Position numbers and translations under genes: made by a program. The notes beneath the pieces were generated by a model, which saw nothing but the letters and a program-made list of their open reading frames with translations, did no database searches and had not been told where the DNA came from. Positions 1 to 21,272 of a stretch of 21,272 bases of DNA are shown here, piece by piece. The DNA comes from a virus (Duplodnaviria > Heunggongvirae > Uroviricota > Caudoviricetes): IMG/VR virus record IMGVR_UViG_2778261501_000004, positions 1 through 21,272 of that record. One strand, written 5' to 3'. Numbering within the stretch: the stretch's first letter is position 1; the number at the start of each line of letters is the position of its first letter.

Positions 1-981
1 TTATAACGTCACTCCGCCTTTTAGTGGATTCAGAGCGACGGCGTTCTGCAGGTAGTCAGGCGCAAGGTGCGCATAGGTCATTGTCTGCTGAATGCTCGCA
101 TGCCCCAGAATCTGTTGCAGTGCAATTATGTTGCCCCCATTCATCATGAAATGGCTTGCGAATGTATGCCGCAGAATGTGGGTTGCCTGATTGGGAGGTA
201 TATCAGGTTTCACTCTGCGTAAAATCCCGCAAAACTTCTCATAATCTACCTTGAACAATTTGGCGCTGGCCTCCTCTTTAACTTTTTTCTCCAGTTCCTC
301 AGAAATCGGCACTGTTCGCTTTTTACCGTTTTTGGTTTTCAGGAAGGTAACCCTGCAACTTGTAATCTGTGCTGGTTTTAGCGTGGCAACTTCCGTCCAT
401 CTTCCTCCAGTGCTCAGACATAAAAGCGCGACAAGTAAGTCATCACCAGTCAAAACATTTAGCAGTTTTTCGATTTCTGCTTTTTCCAGGAACGTCATTT
501 CAGGGTTAGCCTCCGTCAGTGGCGGCAGTCCGTGAATTGGGTGTTGCCCGGAAAATTCATCCAATTGAATTAATTTTGTGAACATGCCGGATAATCGGTA
601 CATGTCGCGGTTTATCGTTGCAGCACTGATGCCATCACGTAGTCGCATGGAGCGATAATCCATCAAAGCCCTTTTGTTCATCCGGCTCACTGGTATATCA
701 CCTATGCCGCTGATGGTTTTGAGCAGATGATTAAACTCTTTTGTCCCATGCTCGTGGTTTTGCCCGTGGTATTTCCACCAGATGTCGAGCAATTCTGTCA
801 AAGTTCGGCGGTCTGCTCGCTGGCCTCCCCATTCTTTCTGACTGGCATTGGCGATTGTGTATCGCTCAAATGCTAGTGCTTCAGCTTTTCTTTCAAATTT
901 CCTGCGGATGCGTTTTCCGTCGCGACCGCGAGGTCTAATGTCCACTTCATAGCGACCATCATCGAGCTTCTTAATTGCCAT
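1..981 (-). CDS. int: Tyrosine integrase, P2 Int family (326 aa)
   Basis: Start is taken at ATG 981 (MAIKKLDDGRYEVDIRP..., the P2 Int N-terminus as I recall it), not at the ORF-track start 1011. C-terminal catalytic motifs are HILRHTFASH and LGHASIQQTMTYAHL (R/HxxR/Y). The stop TAA is at 1-3. Confidence 0.93.
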   Translation of the reverse strand: MAIKKLDDGRYEVDIRPRGRDGKRIRRKFERKAEALAFERYTIANASQKEWGGQRADRRTLTELLDIWWKYHGQNHEHGTKEFNHLLKTISGIGDIPVSRMNKRALMDYRSMRLRDGISAATINRDMYRLSGMFTKLIQLDEFSGQHPIHGLPPLTEANPEMTFLEKAEIEKLLNVLTGDDLLVALLCLSTGGRWTEVATLKPAQITSCRVTFLKTKNGKKRTVPISEELEKKVKEEASAKLFKVDYEKFCGILRRVKPDIPPNQATHILRHTFASHFMMNGGNIIALQQILGHASIQQTMTYAHLAPDYLQNAVALNPLKGGVTL

Positions 982-1050
982 AAGAAAGCCCTCCGGCGCT
1001 GTATTCACCATCTTGGTGGCAAATGGTGAAAATGTAATTTTTATATAGAG

Positions 1051-1479: not shown

Positions 1480-1752
1480 ATGGAAGTTAATGATTATGTG
1501 ATTAAGTACCCGCTTGATGCGGTACATGCGGAAAAGTTTGCAGATTTATTGGGTAAACCAAAAACCGCAGTTACAGAAATGATAAAGGCTAACAAGCTAC
1601 CGGTTATCGAGCTTCGAGATCCAAATAAGCCGAAGGCCCGCGCCGGTGAGAAATGGGTTTTCATTCCAGAGTTTAATCGCGCTGTACGTGAGGCGTTTTA
1701 TAACCGACCGGTTGAACAGCGTGATGCATGGCTTTTGTGGATGGGGTTGTGA
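1480..1752 (+). CDS. cox: Cox-type excisionase / early repressor of Pc (90 aa)
   Basis: It is the first gene of the rightward early operon. The sequence (KLPVIELRDPNKPKARAGEKWVFIPEFN...RDAWLLWMGL) parallels P2 Cox (KLPVIDMTDP...GRAGEYWVYLP...RDGWLMWLGL, recalled). A GAGGG Shine-Dalgarno (SD) sequence lies upstream. Confidence 0.85.
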   Translation: MEVNDYVIKYPLDAVHAEKFADLLGKPKTAVTEMIKANKLPVIELRDPNKPKARAGEKWVFIPEFNRAVREAFYNRPVEQRDAWLLWMGL

Positions 1753-3509: not shown

Positions 3510-5784
3510 AGCCTCCGGGCGTTTTGTCCCTCCGTCAGCATTTGCCGCAGGCACCGGTAAGGCGTTTACCGGTGCTTATGCATGGAACGCGCCACGCGAG
3601 GCTGTCGGGCGCGAAAGACCCCTTACACGTGACGAGATGCGTCAGGTGCAAGGTGTTTTATCCACGATTAACCGCCTGCCTTACTTTTTGCGCTCGCTGT
3701 TTACTTCACGCTATGACTACATCCGGCGCAATAAAAGCCCGGTGCACGGGTTTTATTTCCTCACATCCACTTTTCAGCGTCGTTTATGGCCGCGCATTGA
3801 GCGTGTGAATCAGCGCCATGAAATGAACACCGACGCGTCGTTGCTGTTTCTGGCAGAGCGCGACCAGTATGCGCGCCTGCCGGGGATGAATGACAAGGAG
3901 CTGAAAAAGTTTGCTGCCCGTATCTCATCGCAGCTTTTCATGATGTATGAGGAACTCTGCGATGCCTGGGTTGATGCACATGGCGAAAAAGAATCGCTGT
4001 TTACGGATGAGGCGCAGGCTCACCTCTATGGTCATGTTGCTGGCGCTGCGCGTGCTTTCAATATTTCCCCGCTTTACTGGAAAAAATACCGTAAAGGGCA
4101 GATGACCACGAGGCAGGCATATTCTGCCATTGCCCGCCTGTTTAACGATGAGTGGTGGACTCATCAGCTTAAAGGCCAGCGTATGCGCTGGCATGAGGCG
4201 TTACTGATTGCTGTCGGGGAGGTCAATAAAGACCGTTCTCCTTATGCCAGTAAACATGCCATTCGTGATGTGCGTGCGCGCCGCCAGGCAAATCTGGAAT
4301 TTCTTAAATCGTGTGACCTTGAAAACAAGGAAACCGGCGAGCGCATCGACCTTATCAGTAAGGTGATGGGCAGTATTTCTAATCCTGAAATTCGCCGGAT
4401 GGAGCTGATGAACACCATTGCCGGTATTGAGCGTTACGCCGCCGCAGAGGGTGATGTGGGGATGTTTATCACGCTGACCGCGCCGTCAAAGTATCACCCG
4501 ACACGTCAGGTCAGAAAAGGCGAAAGTAAAACCGTTCAGCTTAATCACGGCTGGAACGATGAGGCATTTAATCCAAAGGATGCGCAGCGTTATCTCTGCC
4601 GCATCTGGAGCCTGATGCGCACGGCATTCAAGGATAATGATTTACAGGTCTACGGTTTGCGTGTCGTCGAGCCACACCACGACGGAACGCCGCACTGGCA
4701 TATGATGCTTTTTTGTAATCCACGCCAGCGTAACCAGATTATCGAAATCATGCGTCGCTACGCGCTCAAAGAGGATGGAGACGAAAGAGGAGCTGCGCGA
4801 AACCGTTTTCAGGCAAAACACCTTAACCGGGGCGGTGCTGCGGGATATATCGCGAAATACATTTCAAAAAACATCGACGGCTATGCACTGGATGGTCAGC
4901 TCGATAACGACACCGGCAGGCCGCTGAAAGACACTGCAGCGGCTGTTACCGCATGGGCGTCAACGTGGCGCATCCCGCAATTTAAAACGGTTGGCCTGCC
5001 GACAATGGGGGCTTACCGTGAACTACGCAAATTGCCGCGCGGCGTCAGCATTGCTGATGAGTTTGACGAGCGCGTCGAGGCTGCACGCGCCGCCGCAGAC
5101 AGTGGTGATTTTGCGTTGTATATCAGCGCGCAGGGTGGGGCAAATGTCCCGCGCGATTGTCAGACTGTCAGGGTTGCCCGTAGCCCGTCGGATGACGTTA
5201 ACGAGTACGAGGAAGAAGTCGAGAGAGTGGTCGGCATTTACGCGCCGCATCTCGGCGCGCGTCATATTCATATCACCAGAACGACGGACTGGCGCATTGT
5301 TCCGAAAGTGCCGGTCGTTGAGCCTTTGACTTTAAAAAGCGGCATCGCCGCGCCTCGGAGTCCTGTCAATAACTGTGGAAAGCTTACCGGCGGTGATACT
5401 TCGTTACCGGCTCCCACACCTTCTGAGCACGTCGCAGCAGTGCTTAATCTGGTTGATGACGGTGTTATCGAATGGAATGACCCGGAGGTCGTGAGGGCGC
5501 TCAGGAGCGCATTAAAATACGGCCTGAGAACCTCAAACCGTCAGCAAAGAAACGGAAGCCCGTTAAAACCGCATGAAATTGCACCATCGGCCAGACTGAC
5601 CCGGTCGGAAAGAATGCAAATTACCCGTATCCGCGTTGACCTTGCTCATAACGGTATCAGGCCGCAGCGATGGGAGCTTGAGGCGCTGGCGCGTGGCGCG
5701 ACCGTAAATTATGACGGGAAAAAATTCACTTATCCGGTCGCTGATGAGTGGCCGGGATTCTCAACAGTAATGGAGTGGAAATGA
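3499..5784 (+). CDS. A: Rolling-circle replication initiator gpA (761 aa, HUH endonuclease)
   Basis: Start is at ATG 3499 (MAVKASGRFVPP...), giving the 761 aa of P2 gpA. The HUH motif is PHWHMMLF and the two-tyrosine motif is YIAKYISK. The upstream 14 codons of the ORF-track call overlap orf83. Confidence 0.95.
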   Translation: MAVKASGRFVPPSAFAAGTGKAFTGAYAWNAPREAVGRERPLTRDEMRQVQGVLSTINRLPYFLRSLFTSRYDYIRRNKSPVHGFYFLTSTFQRRLWPRIERVNQRHEMNTDASLLFLAERDQYARLPGMNDKELKKFAARISSQLFMMYEELCDAWVDAHGEKESLFTDEAQAHLYGHVAGAARAFNISPLYWKKYRKGQMTTRQAYSAIARLFNDEWWTHQLKGQRMRWHEALLIAVGEVNKDRSPYASKHAIRDVRARRQANLEFLKSCDLENKETGERIDLISKVMGSISNPEIRRMELMNTIAGIERYAAAEGDVGMFITLTAPSKYHPTRQVRKGESKTVQLNHGWNDEAFNPKDAQRYLCRIWSLMRTAFKDNDLQVYGLRVVEPHHDGTPHWHMMLFCNPRQRNQIIEIMRRYALKEDGDERGAARNRFQAKHLNRGGAAGYIAKYISKNIDGYALDGQLDNDTGRPLKDTAAAVTAWASTWRIPQFKTVGLPTMGAYRELRKLPRGVSIADEFDERVEAARAAADSGDFALYISAQGGANVPRDCQTVRVARSPSDDVNEYEEEVERVVGIYAPHLGARHIHITRTTDWRIVPKVPVVEPLTLKSGIAAPRSPVNNCGKLTGGDTSLPAPTPSEHVAAVLNLVDDGVIEWNDPEVVRALRSALKYGLRTSNRQQRNGSPLKPHEIAPSARLTRSERMQITRIRVDLAHNGIRPQRWELEALARGATVNYDGKKFTYPVADEWPGFSTVMEWK

Positions 5785-6227
5785 TGGCAAAAATTCACGA
5801 GGTAAAGCTGCACGCCAAATATTTTGACCTTGTGCTGGAAGGAAAGAAACGCGCAGAGTTTCGGAAAAATGACCGTAATTATGAGCGCGGGGACACGTTG
5901 ATTTTGCATGAATGGGTACAGGGTGTGTATACGGGGCGAAAGGTTGAAGCCCGGATAACAGATGTTACTGACCTGTCAGACTGGCTGGAAGATTATGTCT
6001 TGCTAAGTATTGAGCGGCTTAATACAGGCGCATATGAGATTGTGAACTGGAAAGAACTTAGTGAGCGTGGTCTGGTATTCAGAATTAATCATGAAATTAT
6101 GCATCAGCTCGGCCTTGCTGTTATGTATGAGCCGGAGACGGGGCTGTCTGGCGGGGCAGTGGTTACTGCGGATGGGATATGGAACTATTCAGATGAACAG
6201 GTGGAGCGTACAAAGCAAAACGGGTGA
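5781..6227 (+). CDS. ASCH/DUF3850-like protein with a C-terminal extension (about 148 aa)
   Basis: The N-terminus HEVKLHAKYFDLVLEGKKRAEFRKNDRNYERGDTLILHEW fits the ASCH-like DUF3850 pattern as I recall it. The start (5781 or 5784) overlaps the A stop (5782-5784). This is the P2 orf91 position. Confidence 0.6.
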   Translation: MMAKIHEVKLHAKYFDLVLEGKKRAEFRKNDRNYERGDTLILHEWVQGVYTGRKVEARITDVTDLSDWLEDYVLLSIERLNTGAYEIVNWKELSERGLVFRINHEIMHQLGLAVMYEPETGLSGGAVVTADGIWNYSDEQVERTKQNG

Positions 6228-6442
6228 CTTGGATAATGCACAGAATACCAGGCGAGATACCGCACCATAAAACTAAAAATATCAAGCTGATGGCTATTGT
6301 TCAGCGTTTACAGCGGATTATGGTCAACGAAAATCTGACGCCCGATGAGCTGGTCGGGTGTGCCGAAATAGTCCGGGATAATTACGGGCGGTTTAACCAT
6401 ATCGGTCAATCAAGAGTTACGCCACCACCACGCAGACGATAG
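6224..6442 (+). CDS. Small hypothetical protein (72 aa from GTG 6224, or 68 aa from ATG 6236)
   Basis: GTGA overlap with the preceding stop. No motif recognised. It is the last ORF before the AT-rich island. Confidence 0.35.
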   Translation: MTWIMHRIPGEIPHHKTKNIKLMAIVQRLQRIMVNENLTPDELVGCAEIVRDNYGRFNHIGQSRVTPPPRRR

Positions 6443-6663
6443 AGAACGCCGCCAGTCGTGAAACTTGTTTTCAGGGCTGGCGGGGTTGAACAACGAGCGA
6501 AGCGAGGCGTTAGCTAGGCTTTCTATATTGTTTACAATTAAACCTATCCAGAATTAATTGGAATTCAATTTGATCTTTTTCTCGCTACATATGGCCACAA
6601 GTACCAAAACGTGAGAACATCAAAGCTAGGCGAAATCTAGCTTTTCCATAGGAGTTGTTTCGT

Positions 6664-6690
6664 TATAATACGCGGTCGGTTTTTAGGAGG
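6664..6690 (+). promoter_or_regulatory. Candidate -10 element and ribosome-binding site of the methyltransferase gene
   Basis: TATAAT at 6664-6669. AGGAGG at 6685-6690, 5 nt before ATG 6696. No convincing -35 hexamer. Confidence 0.4.
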
Positions 6691-6695
6691 GGTCA

Positions 6696-7634
6696 ATGCC
6701 AACTGTAGTGTCGCTTTTTTCCGGGTGTGGTGGTTCTGATGCAGGAGTCTTGAAGGCTGGGTTTGATGTTCTAATGGCGAATGACATTTTACCTTACGCT
6801 CGTGATGTGTATTTGGCTAACCATCCAGAAACTGATTATGTTTTGGGTGATGTCTCCACTATTGAATCGTTTCCATCTGCTGAACTGCTGGTTGGTTGCT
6901 ATCCCTGTCAAGGTTTTAGCCAAGGTGGAGTTCGAAAAGCTGATAGAAAAATTAATACGCTATACTTAGAGTTTGCAAGAGCTTTAAGAATAGTTAAGCC
7001 AAAAGCGTTCATTGTTGAAAACGTTTCTGGCATGTTGCGAAGTAACTTTGAACATTTGTTGAAAGATCAGTTCAAGGTTTTCGAAGAGGCTGGTTACAGA
7101 GTTAAATCTAAAATTCTAAATGCTTCTCATTTTGGTGTTGCTCAGGATCGTAAGCGCATTTTTATTGTTGGCATACATGAGAGATTTGGAGTTGATTTTT
7201 CGTTTCCAGTCGCGACTCATGGCGAAGGATTGAAAAGAGTGACTACTATCCGTGATGCGATAGGTTCGTTACCGGAATGGCCTGTTGGAGAGTTTTATGA
7301 TGCCGATTTCCATTGGTATTATTTATCAAGAAATCGCCGTCAGGACTGGGATCAAATCTCAAAAACCATAGTTGCTAATCCAAGGCATATGCCTTTACAT
7401 CCAATTAGTCCAACTCTTATAAAGTTAGGTCCAGATAAATGGCAATTTACATCAAATGAACGTGCACGGCGTTTTAGTTTTCGTGAGGCTGCTTATCTTC
7501 AAGGATTTAGTAATTTAGTTTTTCCTGAAACAGAGCGAGCATCCATGAATATGAAATATACAGTTGTCGGAAACGCCGTACCGCCCCCTTTATTCGAAGC
7601 GGTAGCGCGTTCATTACCTGATATTTGGGATTAA
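6696..7634 (+). CDS. DNA (cytosine-5)-methyltransferase, 312 aa, complete motif set
   Basis: Motif I LFSGCGG, motif IV PCQGFS (PCQ encoded at 6903-6911), motif VI ENV, motif VIII QDRKRIF, motif IX RRFSFREAAYLQGF, motif X GNAVPP. A short variable region of about 100 aa lies between motifs VIII and IX. Confidence 0.92.
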   Translation: MPTVVSLFSGCGGSDAGVLKAGFDVLMANDILPYARDVYLANHPETDYVLGDVSTIESFPSAELLVGCYPCQGFSQGGVRKADRKINTLYLEFARALRIVKPKAFIVENVSGMLRSNFEHLLKDQFKVFEEAGYRVKSKILNASHFGVAQDRKRIFIVGIHERFGVDFSFPVATHGEGLKRVTTIRDAIGSLPEWPVGEFYDADFHWYYLSRNRRQDWDQISKTIVANPRHMPLHPISPTLIKLGPDKWQFTSNERARRFSFREAAYLQGFSNLVFPETERASMNMKYTVVGNAVPPPLFEAVARSLPDIWD

Positions 7635-8560
7635 CTCAACACATAATCCATAGCCACTAAGTCATCAACAAACGTTAGATTGTCTTGGTGGTTTATCTGT
7701 GGATATTTTTTAGTCAGATTTACTAGTCTAAGTCTATCAACAAATATTGCAGCACCAAAATCACTCCTGTGAGCCCAGTCGCGGTTATGCCATCTTAAAT
7801 CTTGTGGAAGAAAATAATATGTTGACCATGGATGTAAGACAGGAAGCAAATTCCACAATTTAGCCGGTGTGGCCTCAAGTTGTTTTGCTACCCATTCAGT
7901 TTTTGAACATCCACATTGAGCAAGAGCAAGAGGTATAGACTCACGATTATCTCCCATATCATGCCAAGCGAGTATATCAATTCCTCCATCTCCCCTGTCA
8001 TTTGGTTTGAAATCTTCAATTGAAAAATTAGCTTTACATCTGAAATCTTGTGCTATTTTAGTTAACTTATCAAAGAGTAAGCCAGTGTAGTGACCTGAAT
8101 TACCTGCGCTAGCCCAACAGTGTTTAACTGTTGCTCCTTCAGGCATGAGGGCTTGAAATATGGGATAGCTTATTTTCTCAAATGCACTTGTAAATATGTC
8201 ACGGTGACTATTTTCTATATATTTTATATTTGCACAGGCTAAGAGTGCTATGTATAGTTTTTCATTTTGATTGTAATCAGCAATATTATGCTTTCTTAAG
8301 AATAATGTGTCTCTGTCATCAGAAAAATAAAAGGGGTAATCATCACCGAAAAGGCTAATTCTTGTGTCAATGAATGTCGCTGCAAAATTCCATTTATCGT
8401 CAGAATACCCGCGTGACTTTGGATTTGCTTGAGACCTAAAGAGGCTTGCTAGATCTCCTCTACTAAAGCATTTGTCTGTATTTACTGTAGCCCATAACTC
8501 TAAATAGTCGCCCCATAAATATGGCTCGTTATCGGGTAATGAGTCCATGTGAAAAATCAT
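7631..8560 (-). CDS. Hypothetical protein with an Mrr-like / PD-(D/E)xK-like motif; putative nuclease (309 aa)
   Basis: RGDGGIDILAW...LALAQCGCSK (codons 189-220, nt 7901-7996) resembles the Mrr-cat signature GDGGID...QxK, but with extra residues in the Q..K element. SD GAGGAAG lies upstream. The start overlaps the upstream stop (TAATG). The function is an inference. Confidence 0.6.
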   Translation of the reverse strand: MIFHMDSLPDNEPYLWGDYLELWATVNTDKCFSRGDLASLFRSQANPKSRGYSDDKWNFAATFIDTRISLFGDDYPFYFSDDRDTLFLRKHNIADYNQNEKLYIALLACANIKYIENSHRDIFTSAFEKISYPIFQALMPEGATVKHCWASAGNSGHYTGLLFDKLTKIAQDFRCKANFSIEDFKPNDRGDGGIDILAWHDMGDNRESIPLALAQCGCSKTEWVAKQLEATPAKLWNLLPVLHPWSTYYFLPQDLRWHNRDWAHRSDFGAAIFVDRLRLVNLTKKYPQINHQDNLTFVDDLVAMDYVLS

Positions 8561-9639
8561 TATTCATCTTCCTCACGGATGCTTTCAATTTGTTTTTTAA
8601 TTTTACGCGCTATAGATAATATTTCACTCGAACGATATTCGTGATTTTCTGTGAAAGAGTGCGTGTTGAGAAGCATATCCCAAACAACTCTTAGTCGAGA
8701 TTCTGCTTGGTCTAGAGCTTGATCCAAAGCCTCTTCATGACCATTTGTATATAAATAGGCTTCTTCAATGTTTTTAGACTTTATGAGGTTATCTATTGCT
8801 GCTTCATTGGCAACTATTGTTGAAAGATTTTTGATCTTGCGACTTTCACCAATGATAGTATCACCCTGTTGATCTCTAACAAAGAACCAAGCAAAAAGCT
8901 TCTCAAGGTTTTCCTCTTTCAGGTTTTTAGCAGATAAATCTTTTCTATCATCTAAGCCTAACCAGTCTGTAATGTTAGTATATCCAAGAGCTGTTGTTAT
9001 GTAGGAAAAATCGACATCATTCTCACTCATATGCAAATTATAGAAGTTTTTATCAGCAGCGGTTTCATATAATTTGAGTGAAGTTAATAAAAGGCCGACG
9101 TAATAAGATTTACTGCCAATTTCTTTAGCTAATGACTTTAAAAGAGATTCTTTGTCTGCACCTTTGTAGAAAGTTTCACTAAGCTCCTTAAGATACTTAG
9201 CTTTAGAAAGTGCATCCCATTCTTTCACACCAGTAATGTGTCTATATCCGATATAACGTAACACATCTTCACGTCTTGTGTAGACGAGACAAGGTAATTT
9301 AGTCGGTTTATAAGTAGCATCGTCCTGAATTAGTTGAATGCTTTTTTCTTTTCTTTTAGGTGGTAAAAGTTCGCTATTGAGCAACTTTACGGCAGCAAGG
9401 CGACGGTTACCCTCAACTACAACATATTTTTTCCCGGAACTAACCACTAAAAGAGGTTCTCCGGGAAAGTAATCTTGTTCCCCTATGGACAGCATCAAAT
9501 CTTGTACACTTTCGTCATCAAGCATTTCTTCAATGACGGCATTTTCAGATCCAGCCCTATCGTTTAACCGATAGAAACGTGGGTTTTCAGGATCAAACTC
9601 TAGATCTTCCGTGTTTATGTATTTGATTTCGTTGCTCAT
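8560..9639 (-). CDS. ParB/Srx N-terminal-domain protein (359 aa)
   Basis: LEFDPENPRF plus VVVEGNRRLAAVKLL (GNRR encoded at 9400-9411) matches the ParB-N / sulfiredoxin-fold signature. The remaining ~240 aa are helical-looking with no motif I recognise. There is no obvious SD before ATG 9639. Confidence 0.8.
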   Translation of the reverse strand: MSNEIKYINTEDLEFDPENPRFYRLNDRAGSENAVIEEMLDDESVQDLMLSIGEQDYFPGEPLLVVSSGKKYVVVEGNRRLAAVKLLNSELLPPKRKEKSIQLIQDDATYKPTKLPCLVYTRREDVLRYIGYRHITGVKEWDALSKAKYLKELSETFYKGADKESLLKSLAKEIGSKSYYVGLLLTSLKLYETAADKNFYNLHMSENDVDFSYITTALGYTNITDWLGLDDRKDLSAKNLKEENLEKLFAWFFVRDQQGDTIIGESRKIKNLSTIVANEAAIDNLIKSKNIEEAYLYTNGHEEALDQALDQAESRLRVVWDMLLNTHSFTENHEYRSSEILSIARKIKKQIESIREEDE

Positions 9640-9830
9640 AATTGTATTCTGCGCAGATATAAGGATGACTTGCTACAGCATAACCTTATGTTTAGCATCT
9701 GTCATTATGATGGCTGCCTTATGCATGATTTTGCATCCATTTTTTATTTTATTTTTTTGGGGGCGCATTAGGCCCGATATGGTTTTTGGAGACGATGCGT
9801 TTGCATCAAAACAGCCCCATGAAGCGGGCG

Positions 9831-9849
9831 GGCGAGGCGGGGAAAGCAC
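9831..9849. other. cos cohesive-end sequence (P2 19-nt 5' overhang)
   Basis: GGCGAGGCGGGGAAAGCAC is identical to the P2 cohesive end as I recall it. It sits downstream of Q, exactly as in P2. Confidence 0.8.
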
Positions 9850-9990
9850 TGCGCGCTGGCAGTAGTGCTGATTTTATTTTTTCAGCGTCTGAGCGCGTCG
9901 TGATGGCGTTTAGATTGTGTGCCGGGGCGTTGGTTTGTCTGCGGGCTATTTTGCGCGGAGGTGAGCGTGTGAGGGCGTGATGGCGGGGTG

Positions 9991-10013
9991 TAAAAAAGCC
10001 GCCCGCAGGCGGC
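9991..10013 (-). terminator. Rho-independent terminator downstream of Q
   Basis: Stem GCCGCC (9998-10003) and GGCGGC (10008-10013) with loop CGCA. On the minus strand this is followed by a T6 run (A-run 9992-9997 on the plus strand). Confidence 0.65.
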
Positions 10014-10018
10014 GATGT

Positions 10019-11053
10019 TCAGCCGTTGTCAGTGTCCAGTGAGTAGTTTTTAAAGCGGATGACCTCCTGACCGAGCCAGCCGTTTATCTCGCGGATCCTG
10101 TCCTGTAACGGGATAAGCTCATTGCGGACAAAGACCTTTGCCACTTTCTCAATATCACCCAGCGACCCGACGTTCTCCGGCTTGCCGCCCATCAACTGAA
10201 AGGGGATGCGGTGCGCGTCCAGCAGGTCAGCGGCGCTGGCTTTTTTGATATTAAAAAAATCGTCCTTCGTTGCCACTTCACTGAGCGGGATAATTTTTAT
10301 GCCGTCGGCTTTCCCCTGTGGGGCATAGAGAAACAGATTTTTAAAGTTATTGCGGCCTTTCGACTTAACCATGTTTTCGCGAAGCATTTCGATATCGTTG
10401 CGATCCTGCACGGCATCGGTGACGTACATGATGTATCCGGCATGTGCGCCATTTTCGTAATACTTGCGGCGGAACAGCGTGGCCGACTCATTCAGCCAGG
10501 CAGAATTAAGGGCGCTCAGATATTCCGGCAGGCCGTACAACTCCTGATTGATATCCGGCTCCAGCAGGTGAAACACGGAGCCGGGCGTGAAGGCTGTCGG
10601 CTCGTTGAAGGACGGCACCCACCAGTAAACATCCTCCTCCACGCCACGGCGGGTATATTTTGCCGGTGAGGTTTCCAGTCTGATGACCTTACCGGTGGTG
10701 CTGTAACGCTTTTCCAGAAACGCATTACCGAACACCAGAAAATCCAGCACAAAGCGGCTGAAATCCTGCTGGGAAAGCCACGGATGCGGGATAAATGTCG
10801 AGGCCAGAATATTACGTTTGACGTAAATCGGTGAGCTGTGATGCACGGCAGCACGCAGGCTTTTTGCCAGACCGGTAAAGCTGACCGGTGGCTCATACCA
10901 TCTGCCGTTACTGATGCACTCGACGTAATCCAGAATGTCACGGCGGTCGAGTACCGGCACCGGCTCACCAAAGGTGAATGCCTCCATTTTCGGGGCGCTG
11001 GCGGTCATTGTTTTCACCGCTGGCTGCGGTGTTTTCCCTTTTTTCTTGCTCAT
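10019..11053 (-). CDS. Q: Portal protein gpQ (344 aa)
   Basis: Length and position match P2 Q. ATGA overlap with the P stop at 11053. Confidence 0.93.
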   Translation of the reverse strand: MSKKKGKTPQPAVKTMTASAPKMEAFTFGEPVPVLDRRDILDYVECISNGRWYEPPVSFTGLAKSLRAAVHHSSPIYVKRNILASTFIPHPWLSQQDFSRFVLDFLVFGNAFLEKRYSTTGKVIRLETSPAKYTRRGVEEDVYWWVPSFNEPTAFTPGSVFHLLEPDINQELYGLPEYLSALNSAWLNESATLFRRKYYENGAHAGYIMYVTDAVQDRNDIEMLRENMVKSKGRNNFKNLFLYAPQGKADGIKIIPLSEVATKDDFFNIKKASAADLLDAHRIPFQLMGGKPENVGSLGDIEKVAKVFVRNELIPLQDRIREINGWLGQEVIRFKNYSLDTDNG

Positions 11054-19259: not shown

Positions 19260-19832
19260 ATGAACACTCTCGCAAATATTCAGGAACTCGCGCGCGCACT
19301 GCGTAACATGATCCGCACCGGCATTATCGTCGAAACCGACCTTAACGCCGGTCGCTGCCGTGTGCAGACCGGCGGCATGTGCACCGACTGGCTTCAGTGG
19401 CTGACCCATCGCGCCGGTCGTTCGCGCACATGGTGGGCACCTTCCGTGGGGGAACAGGTGCTGATTCTGGCCGTGGGCGGTGAACTCGACACGGCATTCG
19501 TTCTGCCGGGGATTTATTCCGGCGATAACCACGCGCCGTCTGCGTCGGCGGATGCCCTGCATATCCGTTTCCCTGACGGGGCGGTGATTGAGTATGAACC
19601 CGAAACCAGTGCACTTACGGTAGCGGAGTTCTCCATCAGCCTGGCTACCGGTCGGGCAGATATTTACACGGAAACACCGGTCAAAGTGTCAGGCTTTAAG
19701 CGTGTCATAGACGAGCAGGACTGGACAATCACTAAGGTGACACATTTTCTGAATAATAGCGGCTTCACGACGTCCTTAGAGCTTGAGGTAAGGCTTTCTG
19801 ATGTGGAGTACGAAACCGAAGATGATGAGTGA
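19260..19832 (+). pseudogene. V: In-frame fusion of the 5' part of baseplate spike gene V (codons 1-121) to the 3' end of tail gene D (69 codons). This is the deletion scar.
   Basis: Residues 1-121 follow P2 gpV (211 aa) up to ...EPETSALTV. The ORF then switches to AEFSISLATGRADIYTETPVKVSGFKRVIDEQDWTITKVTHFLNNSGFTTSLELEVRLSDVEYETEDDE and stops 82 nt before ogr, which is where D ends in P2. Genes W J I H G FI FII E T U are absent. Confidence 0.78.
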
Positions 19833-19914: not shown

Positions 19915-20133
19915 ATGTTTCATTGTCCTTTATGCCAGCATGCCGCACATGCGCGTACAAGCCGCTATATCACTGACACGACAAAAGAGCGTTATCACCA
20001 GTGCCAGAACGTGAATTGCAGCGCCACGTTCATTACTTATGAGTCGGTACAGCGATACATCGTGAAGCCGGGAGAAGTCCACGCCGTGAGGCCGCACCCG
20101 TTGCCGTCAGGGCAGCAAATTATGTGGATGTGA
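19915..20133 (+). CDS. ogr: Late-gene transcription activator Ogr (zinc-finger, 72 aa)
   Basis: MFHCPLCQHAAHARTSRYITDTTKERYHQCQNVNCSATF... gives a CxxC...CxxxxC pattern, matching P2 Ogr as I recall it. Start is at ATG 19915, not at the ORF-track start 19801. Confidence 0.92.
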   Translation: MFHCPLCQHAAHARTSRYITDTTKERYHQCQNVNCSATFITYESVQRYIVKPGEVHAVRPHPLPSGQQIMWM

Positions 20134-20143
20134 TCACAAAAAT

Positions 20144-20170
20144 AGCCCCTCAGTTGAGGGGCTTTATTTA
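20144..20170 (+). terminator. Rho-independent terminator after ogr
   Basis: Stem AGCCCCTC (20144-20151) and GAGGGGCT (20156-20163), loop AGTT, then a T-rich tail TTATTTA. Confidence 0.7.
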
Positions 20171-20261
20171 TGGTCGATGTGGACGCTATGTGGACAGTGC
20201 TTGATATAAATCCATTTATATCATCAGGTTAGGTGCTTTTTTGTGACACCATCCCTGTCTT
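20171..20261. other. attR-side recombination arm and phage/host junction (approximate)
   Basis: Tandem ATGTGGAC at 20177-20184 and 20188-20195 (11-bp period). Perfect 10-bp inverted repeat TGATATAAAT (20202-20211) / ATTTATATCA (20214-20223). IHF-like TATCATCAGGTTA at 20219-20231, matching 12 of 13 positions of WATCAANNNNTTR. The core cannot be delimited without attL. Confidence 0.45.
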
Positions 20262-20288
20262 CCCCCACATGATGTGGGGGTTTTTTTT
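20262..20288 (+). terminator. Strong rho-independent terminator, probably the cpxP/CpxQ 3' end
   Basis: Stem CCCCCAC (20262-20268) and GTGGGGG (20274-20280), then T8 (20281-20288). The preceding GACACCATCCCTGTCTT matches my recollection of the CpxQ sRNA 3' half. It lies upstream of fieF, as expected for the cpxP-fieF intergenic region. Confidence 0.7.
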
Positions 20289-20369
20289 ATCCTCAATTTG
20301 CCTGCTGCTTAATGCATTGCAGATGATTTGCTTCCGTTATACTAGCGTCAGTTGATAGCGGGAGTATTT

Positions 20370-21272
20370 ATGAATCAATCTTATGGACGGCTGGTCAGTC
20401 GGGCGGCGATTGCTGCGACGGCGATGGCTTCGTTGCTATTGCTGATTAAAATTTTTGCATGGTGGTATACCGGGTCGGTGAGTATTCTCGCCGCGCTGGT
20501 GGATTCGCTGGTGGATATCGGCGCGTCGTTGACGAATTTACTGGTGGTGCGATATTCCCTGCAACCTGCCGACGATAATCACTCGTTTGGTCACGGTAAA
20601 GCAGAGTCCCTCGCGGCGCTGGCGCAAAGTATGTTTATCTCCGGTTCGGCACTATTCCTGTTTTTGACGGGTATTCAACATCTGATATCTCCAACACCGA
20701 TGACAGATCCAGGCGTCGGGGTTATCGTGACAATTGTGGCGCTAATTTGTACGATTATCCTTGTCTCGTTTCAGCGTTGGGTGGTGCGCCGGACGCAAAG
20801 CCAGGCGGTGCGGGCTGATATGCTACATTACCAGTCTGATGTTATGATGAACGGCGCAATTCTGCTGGCGCTGGGGTTGTCCTGGTACGGCTGGCATCGC
20901 GCCGATGCTCTGTTTGCATTGGGAATCGGCATCTATATTTTATATAGCGCGTTACGCATGGGATATGAGGCGGTACAGTCATTACTGGATCGCGCATTGC
21001 CTGATGAGGAACGGCAAGAAATTATTGATATCGTGACTTCCTGGCCGGGTGTTAGCGGCGCTCACGATCTTCGCACGCGGCAGTCAGGGCCGACCCGCTT
21101 TATTCAGATTCATTTGGAAATGGAAGACTCTCTGCCTTTGGTTCAGGCACATATGGTGGCGGATCAGGTAGAGCAGGCTATTTTACGGCGTTTTCCGGGA
21201 TCGGATGTAATTATCCATCAGGACCCCTGTTCCGTCGTACCCAGGGAGGGTAAACGGTCTATGCTTTCATAA
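20370..21272 (+). CDS. fieF: Cation-diffusion-facilitator Fe/Zn efflux transporter FieF (YiiP), 300 aa
   Basis: [49 protein letters not shown]... is the E. coli FieF sequence as I recall it. CDF motifs are present (DSLVD, HYQSD). Start is at ATG 20370, not at TTG 20352. Confidence 0.95.

Follow-up and report, generated by a model that had tools for sequence, protein, structure and literature searches.

A probable attR site of a WPhi-type P2-like prophage lying within the sequence of the small RNA CpxQ

Introduction

At the right end of a P2-like prophage in the virus record IMGVR_UViG_2778261501_000004, phage DNA gives way to host DNA shortly upstream of fieF, in sequence that resembles the 3′ end of the small RNA CpxQ. 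The locus raises the question of where exactly the junction lies, how it was made and what integration leaves of this RNA. The window (the whole stretch of DNA that was analyzed, 21,272 nucleotides) is bounded on the left by the stop codon of a P2-type integrase gene and on the right by the end of fieF. The left attachment site, attL, lies outside the window, to the left of int; statements about attL are based on lysogens whose int is 99.9% identical to that of the window.

Among 5426 complete E. coli genomes, 789-790 (~15%) have the cpxP-fieF site occupied. The WPhi attB is probably the subject of a 2006 paper by Karlsson et al. In the E. coli W genome paper, Table 2 lists among the insertion sites "cpxP-fieF Wphi1 (P2)" (PMC3032704), and Table 1 of Nilsson et al. 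places WPhi and L-413C, whose attP cores are identical, at MG1655 position 4104392 (PMC3448106). As an attachment site the locus is therefore nothing new, being that of WPhi, and its mechanism is ordinary. The published descriptions of the site that were searched give only a position between two genes; CpxQ, first described afterwards, is not mentioned in them. Nothing in the open-access literature searched links CpxQ to phage integration. The only part that seems unstated is thus the placement of the site within CpxQ, which forms the non-coding arm of the Cpx envelope-stress response. The points added here are modest: the site falls in CpxQ, the crossover is narrowed to a 23-bp interval, and the pairing of integrase and target is conserved across Enterobacterales.

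Organization of the Prophage

The prophage genes follow the order C, cox, early and replication genes, Q, P, O, N, M and L, and then the lysis genes, R, S, a V′-′D fusion and ogr (Table 1). The integrase shares 316 of 326 residues with WPhi Int (97%), and in locus L003, one of the lysogens with a 99.9%-identical int, the gene is annotated as integrase. The final phage gene ahead of attR, ogr, matches those of WPhi, L-413C and fiAA91-ss. Its terminator has T-rich tails on both strands, which would make it bidirectional. The gene at the right is annotated fieF in every genome matched.

Table 1. Features of the 21,272-nucleotide window, with their coordinates, strand and basis
Feature	Position	Strand	Basis or remark
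Tyrosine integrase of WPhi type (int)	1-984	-	Pfam Int_N and Phage_integrase (PF24624, PF00589)
Immunity repressor C, helix-turn-helix	1051-1344	-	Coordinates carried over from the L003 RefSeq annotation and WPhi C
Cox, excision directionality factor and switch protein	1480-1752	+	L003 annotation: Cox family DNA-binding protein
ASCH/DUF3850 protein	5748-6227		Cargo region
C5 cytosine DNA methylase	6696-7634		Cargo region; Pfam PF00145; PADLOC DruM/MTase_II
309-aa protein without family match	7631-8560	-	Cargo region
359-aa protein resembling PD-Lambda-5_A / PDC-M38A defence candidates	8560-9639	-	Cargo region
ogr, late-gene activator	19915-20133	+	Pfam Ogr_Delta, 76.9 bits
Intrinsic terminator of ogr	20144-20171 (hairpin 20144-20163)	+	8-bp stem, 6 GC
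Putative arm-type integrase site pair, TGTGGAC twice, TGTGGACGCTATGTGGAC	20178-20195	+	Sequence only
Palindrome GATATAAATCCATTTATATC with overlapping IHF-like site TATCATCAGGTTA	20203-20231	+	Inferred; P-arm conservation
Common core of attR, 47 bp, GACACC...TTTTTTTTATC	20245-20291	+	CpxQ nt 15-58 plus ATC
Strand-exchange interval, core positions 2-24, 23 bp	20246-20268	.	SCU-171 repeat and WPhi-type alleles left of position 28
Candidate 7-bp overlap CCATCCC, loop of CpxQ stem-loop 1	20249-20255	.	Fold; inside the mapped interval
Rho-independent terminator of CpxQ	Hairpin 20262-20280, U8 tail 20281-20288	+	Terminator scan and fold
fieF, host gene at the right, upstream region intact	20370-21272	+	Pfam Cation_efflux and ZT_dimer

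The prophage is defective and tail-less. A fusion ORF at 19260-19832 joins ~363 nt from the start of the baseplate gene V to ~213 nt from the end of the tail gene D, with the junction near 19620, and the baseplate, tail-fibre, sheath and tube genes are all deleted. The exact V′-′D arrangement of the window was absent from the complete E. coli genomes searched. E. coli OHT76-1 (locus L005) holds a remnant at the same cpxP-fieF site, with the same V breakpoint and a D portion longer by 106 nt. Between the replication gene and Q lies a cargo region (5748-10019), which may be a defence or restriction-modification island.

The attR Junction and the Common Core

Positions 20245-20288 of the window read GACACCATCCCTGTCTTCCCCCACATGATGTGGGGGTTTTTTTT and are nt 15-58 of CpxQ, which bears out to the base the assignment of this stretch to the 3′ part of CpxQ in the first-pass annotation. 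In RefSeq, cpxQ of K-12 MG1655 (b4716) is 58 nt long (TTTTCCTTGCCATAGACACC...GGGGGTTTTTTTT; in full TTTTCCTTGCCATAGACACCATCCCTGTCTTCCCCCACATGCTGTGGGGGTTTTTTTT) and starts 10 nt past the cpxP stop codon. Published positions agree with this numbering: nhaB pairing uses CpxQ U7 (PMC10250213), and cfa pairing is broken by CpxQ C11G (PMC6755755). Over 20245-20288 the sole difference from K-12 is the terminator loop base, which is A in the window, as in most E. coli, and C in K-12. The CpxQ sequence used in the first-pass annotation was likewise that of the A allele, not the K-12 allele. The intact RNA folds into a 13-nt single-stranded 5′ seed, a stem-loop 1 (SL1) of AGACA / CCAUCCC / UGUCU, and a terminator hairpin followed by U8.

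Host and phage comparisons bound the core on its two sides. The match to the window extends rightward from 20245 in every one of the 5426 complete E. coli genomes, and in the ~4640 that are prophage-free it begins only at that position. In phage genomes (WPhi, L-413C, fiAA91-ss, P24B2 and others) the match ends at 20291. The stretch at 20232-20244 (AGGTGCTTTTTTGT) shows full identity to the P arm of WPhi attP and no relation to the cpxP 3′ UTR. The 47-bp core is identical in attB (L002), in attL (L003), in WPhi attP (L004) and in the attR of the window, with flanks that switch cleanly, and such identity across four contexts is far beyond chance. As the alignments read, this four-way pattern is that of the textbook B-O-B′ × P-O-P′ exchange. 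An alignment of this region and the attL flank with an unoccupied cpxP-fieF locus was the check that the first-pass annotation had proposed; with WPhi attP included, it puts the core at 20245-20291. The annotation had also held that the sequence to the left is not CpxQ, that the crossover falls inside the sRNA, that cpxP lies across the prophage and that attR leaves a 5′-truncated CpxQ copy in the orientation of ogr. All of this stands: the left flank is the WPhi P arm, the junction lies between CpxQ nt 14 and 15, cpxP sits beyond int in the lysogens with 99.9%-identical int (int abuts attL in L003), and the truncated copy has the same orientation as ogr.

The feature is accordingly read, with a probability of roughly 0.9, as the attR of a WPhi-type P2-like prophage that arose by tyrosine-integrase site-specific recombination into the cpxP-fieF attB.

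Natural Alleles and Mapping of the Crossover

Two core polymorphisms are informative: A or C at position 28 (20272, in the terminator loop) and G5T8 or G4T9 at position 36 (20280). At attB, C28 is carried by ~895 prophage-free E. coli genomes, K-12 included, and most others carry A. Exact matches to C28 at attR occur in at least 40 lysogens. At attL, among ~789 E. coli lysogens, C28 gave no exact match with either main P′ arm type, AATC or AATT. In attP, A28 was found in 13 of 13 sequences read base by base, which cover every identity class among 42 phage records. Both alleles are present in one genome, A28 at attL and C28 at attR, in H9Ecoli (31-kb prophage) and in ECCWS199 (1.9-kb int-ogr remnant). 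Because C28 is confined to the host, is kept at attR and gives way to the phage base at attL, the crossover lies to the left of position 28. The ECCWS199 remnant (L197, NZ_CP032237.1, 4512300-4514450) consists of int, a truncated repressor gene and ogr, and both of its cores are intact.

Position 36 is also discordant between attL and attR. The form GGGG-T9 in place of GGGGG-T8 occurs in ~220 unoccupied E. coli genomes; since G4T9 is present in phage and host populations alike, this position shows discordance and not direction. At both polymorphic positions attR carries the host alleles, and the terminator at 20262-20288 is, on sequence grounds, the original host copy.

The tightest bound comes from E. 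coli SCU-171 (L193, NZ_CP054363.1, 3081200-3130000), in which a 47-kb lambdoid prophage occupies the same CpxQ site and carries a P2-type int-C-cox module. Its attL reads GACACCATCCCTGTCTTCCCCCACGTGACGTGGGGGTCTTTTTTTTCAACG and its attR reads AACACCATCCCTGTCTTCCCCCACATGATGTGGGGGTTTTTTTTATCCTCAATTT, so that the direct repeat comprises core positions 2-24 only. The attL terminator is foreign, with a compensatory change of the A25-U29 pair to G-C and a U tail interrupted by UC (a 3′ end of the type G25/C29, UCUUUUUUUU), and the attR terminator is the native E. coli sequence. As attL and attR share positions 2-24 only, strand exchange took place within the equivalent of 20246-20268, a bound that rests on an integrase 65% identical to the window Int. 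The SCU-171 prophage also has a Q antiterminator, lambda-like head and tail genes and gpJ, and is a mosaic between phage families.

Taken by their alleles, the CpxQ terminator loop, the 3′ strand of the stem and the U tail at attL are phage-supplied. The first-pass annotation had supposed as much when it assigned attL a replacement 3′ end of phage origin; the H9Ecoli and ECCWS199 alleles and the foreign terminator of SCU-171 confirm it. IMG/VR scans for attL and attR on one contig returned a single pair (L128/L146), which is uninformative. Four matches to the 17-mer used in these scans (L120, L134, L148 and L153) were set aside as chance, as no terminator follows them.

The P Arm and a Proposed Integration Mechanism

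The P arm leaves CpxQ at a nearly fixed point. When IMG/VR was scanned with the 17-mer GACACCATCCCTGTCTT, all P arms seen but two departed from CpxQ directly before GACACC, that is, 4 bp to the left of the SL1 loop, whatever the lineage or host group. The two exceptions, L028 and SCU-171, diverge 1-2 bp further right. L028 (IMGVR_UViG_2703718843_000003, 1-60) has a P′ arm of the WPhi type, and the divergence of its left arm is shifted rightward by 2 bp (…ATATCTTCACCATCCC). With 56 nt of flank available, it may be an attP whose core is shorter or else an attL formed at a secondary site.

Farther from the core, the P arm contains putative protein-binding sites. The TGTGGAC pair is the only match in the window, with 0.01 expected by chance, and the repeat recurs on the P′ arm of attL and attP. 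A perfect 20-bp palindrome (20203-20222) overlaps an IHF-like site (20219-20231) in AT-rich sequence, and the palindrome is conserved as ATAAATCC(A/T)TTTAT in the P arms of distant phage lineages. The IHF consensus is WATCARNNNNTTR, which the P-arm site resembles.

Within the core, CCATCCC (positions 5-11) is flanked by inverted GACA and TGTC. A short spacer between inverted half-sites is the usual layout of a tyrosine-recombinase core. From this symmetry and the 23-bp interval, the SL1 loop CCATCCC is somewhat favored as the 7-bp overlap.

The attP bears a 47-bp copy of CpxQ nt 15-58 plus ATC. Of the two products of its recombination with attB, attL consists of cpxP, CpxQ nt 1-14, the core, the P′ arm and int, and attR consists of ogr, the P arm, the core and fieF. 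The elements described above suggest how the exchange proceeds. IHF, together with the P-arm TGTGGAC sites, would build the intasome, and integrase subunits bound to the inverted GACA and TGTC half-sites would swap strands across the SL1 loop. The identity block probably reaches the end of the RNA because selection for a working terminator of CpxQ (and of cpxP) keeps it functional in lysogens, and the attR copy would serve only as a terminator between prophage and fieF. In WPhi-type lysogens of E. coli the two CpxQ copies are identical or one loop base apart, so CpxQ is essentially unchanged by lysogeny.

The Displaced Copy at attR

The copy at attR has neither the 14-nt 5′ seed nor the site of RNase E processing nor the cpxP promoter, nt 1-14 being replaced by phage sequence. 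In the intact RNA the seed is the CpxQ 5′ end (UUUUCCUUGCC...), which is made by RNase E cleavage near the cpxP stop codon and acts on nhaB and cfa (PMC6755755). The attR copy follows ogr and P-arm DNA, beginning ~80 bp past the ogr terminator, and no cpxP is present in the window. In its predicted fold SL1 is kept (4 instead of 5 bp), as is the terminator with U8, which together form the Hfq module. No sigma-70-like site turned up in a promoter scan of the stretch from ogr to fieF. A chimeric sRNA arising from attR, an idea raised in the first-pass annotation, is on this showing unlikely.

Alternative Explanations

A junction in a decaying prophage could be a scar of deletion or illegitimate recombination rather than an att site made by integrase, and this prophage is indeed defective, with its V′-′D fusion and without tail genes. 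Both sides of the junction coincide to the base with the WPhi attP core, however, and the same junction recurs in ~790 genomes, among them intact prophages of 31-33 kb. These observations contradict a scar, which is practically untenable. Another reading accepts integrase and moves the strand exchange into the terminator hairpin, the loop acting as overlap and the stems as core sites, which would give attL a terminator of host or mixed origin. No inverted repeat in the core is longer than the terminator, and by analogy with stem-loop targets it was the first guess. An overlap that included position 28 would yield mixed alleles, yet C28 segregates cleanly and attL with C was not found among ~789 lysogens. 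In SCU-171, moreover, stem positions 25 and 29 and the tail are foreign at attL and native at attR. Allele segregation thus rules out the hairpin as the crossover, and this reading is left with a very slight likelihood. Exchange to the left of the terminator, within the 23-bp interval, is preferred.

Two further proposals concern what the phage gains from the sequence. Possible, though doubtful, is that the phage retains the CpxQ terminator chiefly for its own benefit, blocking the entry of ogr or late transcripts into int in attP and into fieF in attR. The position of the terminator in attP, between the convergent ogr and int and in the orientation of ogr, would suit such a role, as would the hairpin and T run kept by phage copies of every lineage and the compensatory G-C pair that preserves the hairpin in a divergent phage copy. 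Against this, ogr has its own terminator 80 bp upstream, phage terminators follow the CpxQ sequence of the host group rather than being arbitrary hairpins, and SL1 and the spacer, needless for a bare terminator, are kept as well. Pressures from own use and from host restoration are compatible and not mutually exclusive. It is quite unlikely that the attR or attP copy is itself expressed, by read-through of the ogr terminator and an RNase E cut at GGUGC/UUUUUUGU that would release a ~52-nt CpxQ-like Hfq-binding regulator or Hfq competitor. The orientation shared with ogr, the CpxQ-like fold with its 4-bp SL1, terminator and U8 tail, the interrupted U tract of the ogr terminator (TTATTTAT) and the U-rich core-adjacent P arm of many lineages are consistent with such an RNA. 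It would nevertheless have to arise downstream of a strong 8-bp GC-rich hairpin, with no promoter-like site from ogr to the core, and would lack the 14-nt nhaB/cfa seed (PMC6755755). The IHF-like and arm sites account for the conservation of the P arm, and the literature searched contains no link between CpxQ and phage integration.

Pairing of Integrase and CpxQ Across Enterobacterales

The association was followed by an integrase search over one genome per bacterial species, with 52 returned loci examined. Every one of the 17 full-length relatives at or above 59% identity adjoins cpxP/CpxQ, with a convergent cpxP homologue present. In 16 of the 17 loci CCATAGACACCATCCCTGTCTT lies 135-167 bp past the int stop codon, and in one at 711 bp. 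In the latter, L037 (Kosakonia arachidis), the 711 bp from the int stop to CpxQ SL1 reflect an insertion in the P′ arm. None of the 33 integrase relatives of at most 56% identity adjoins cpxP/CpxQ. The motif CCATAGACACCATCCCTGTCTT is absent from L051 and L071, whose integrases (at least 59%) are truncated, and L054 (at least 59%), with too short a flank, was left unjudged.

The pairing spans ~13 genera. The 17 loci come from Escherichia, Kosakonia, Citrobacter, Yokenella, Serratia, Yersinia, Morganella, Pseudocitrobacter, Rosenbergiella, Brenneria, Acerihabitans, Xenorhabdus, Photorhabdus and one MAG. That it holds across Enterobacterales makes CpxQ SL1 a convenient conserved landing site. The attL terminators vary by host group, and CpxQ nt 1-31 are invariant. 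The pairing also offers a natural experiment on the variation tolerated in an sRNA terminator. Since the phages bring their own versions of the CpxQ terminator, lysogeny rewrites the 3′ part of a host stress-response sRNA, as with the G-C pair and the interrupted U tail of SCU-171. A bolder proposal, improbable as a whole, is that this integrase clade has tracked CpxQ through exchange in the SL1 loop and that the rewritten tails alter CpxQ termination, Hfq binding or abundance and with them the Cpx response, or that the orphan attR/attP module is expressed as an Hfq-binding RNA. For comparisons among strains of CpxQ sequence, abundance and Hfq binding, it matters that lysogens carry a phage-made terminator; K-12 has the loop allele C, whereas WPhi-type lysogens express A.

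Relation to Known Systems

The closest relative is the WPhi/L-413C site itself (cpxP = yiiO, fieF = yiiP): the host locus is shared, and core, P arm and P′ arm show complete or almost complete identity, the only difference being that the copy in the window belongs to a tail-less defective prophage. In E. coli, P2-like prophages at cyaR/ryeE and rybB and elements at ssrA (PMC3032704) likewise occupy a regulatory RNA gene at its 3′ end or terminator, with another target RNA and another integrase specificity. The first-pass annotation had remarked that integration into sRNA or terminator sequences is little documented for P2-like phages. That remark fails, since P2-like prophages are tabled at the sRNA genes rybB and cyaR, next to elements at ssrA (tmRNA) (PMC3032704), and P2-type integrases are mostly not found at tRNA genes (PMC3448106). 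CpxQ is a processed mRNA 3′ UTR and not an independent gene, so the phage here also supplies the terminator of cpxP.

Williams is said to have described, in 2002, an anticodon-loop class of tRNA integration. The CpxQ site shows a likeness to it in its 7-nt loop and symmetric stem, across which the crossover may by analogy take place. A reference for the integration into tRNA and tmRNA genes that restores their 3′ end is Reiter et al. 1989 (cited in PMC13586616). Shared with that paradigm is an identity block that begins at the crossover and reaches the RNA 3′ end, leaving the gene intact at attL and a displaced 3′ fragment at attR; here attL holds a full CpxQ whose 3′ part is phage-derived by its alleles, and attR holds nt 15-58. 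The difference is that the target is the stem-loop of an Hfq-dependent sRNA. Another non-tRNA non-coding RNA serves as target for phiEf11, which reportedly has its attB in ffs (4.5S RNA) of Enterococcus faecalis with a 27-nt core (PMC12540744); phage, host and RNA as given there are unrelated to the CpxQ case.

Comparison With Rfam

At its gathering thresholds Rfam gave no match in the window, and it contains no CpxQ family. The nearest family, RF02628 Hrs1, matches the opposite strand with 31.8 bits for the attR and attP copies and 44.5 bits for intact E. coli CpxQ, its gathering score of 56.4 being above all of these. The lower score of the attR copy registers the missing 5′ part. In Erwinia, hrs1 lies between cpxP and fieF, in the same orientation as both (PMC4070566). 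Hrs1 looks like the Erwinia orthologue of CpxQ, apparently modelled in reverse complement. Its consensus begins AAAAAAA-CCCC, which is the terminator in reverse complement. The Hrs1 matches, at 20222-20288 of the window (minus strand), 1472-1544 of L002 and 2310-2382 of L003, fall only on the strand opposite cpxP.
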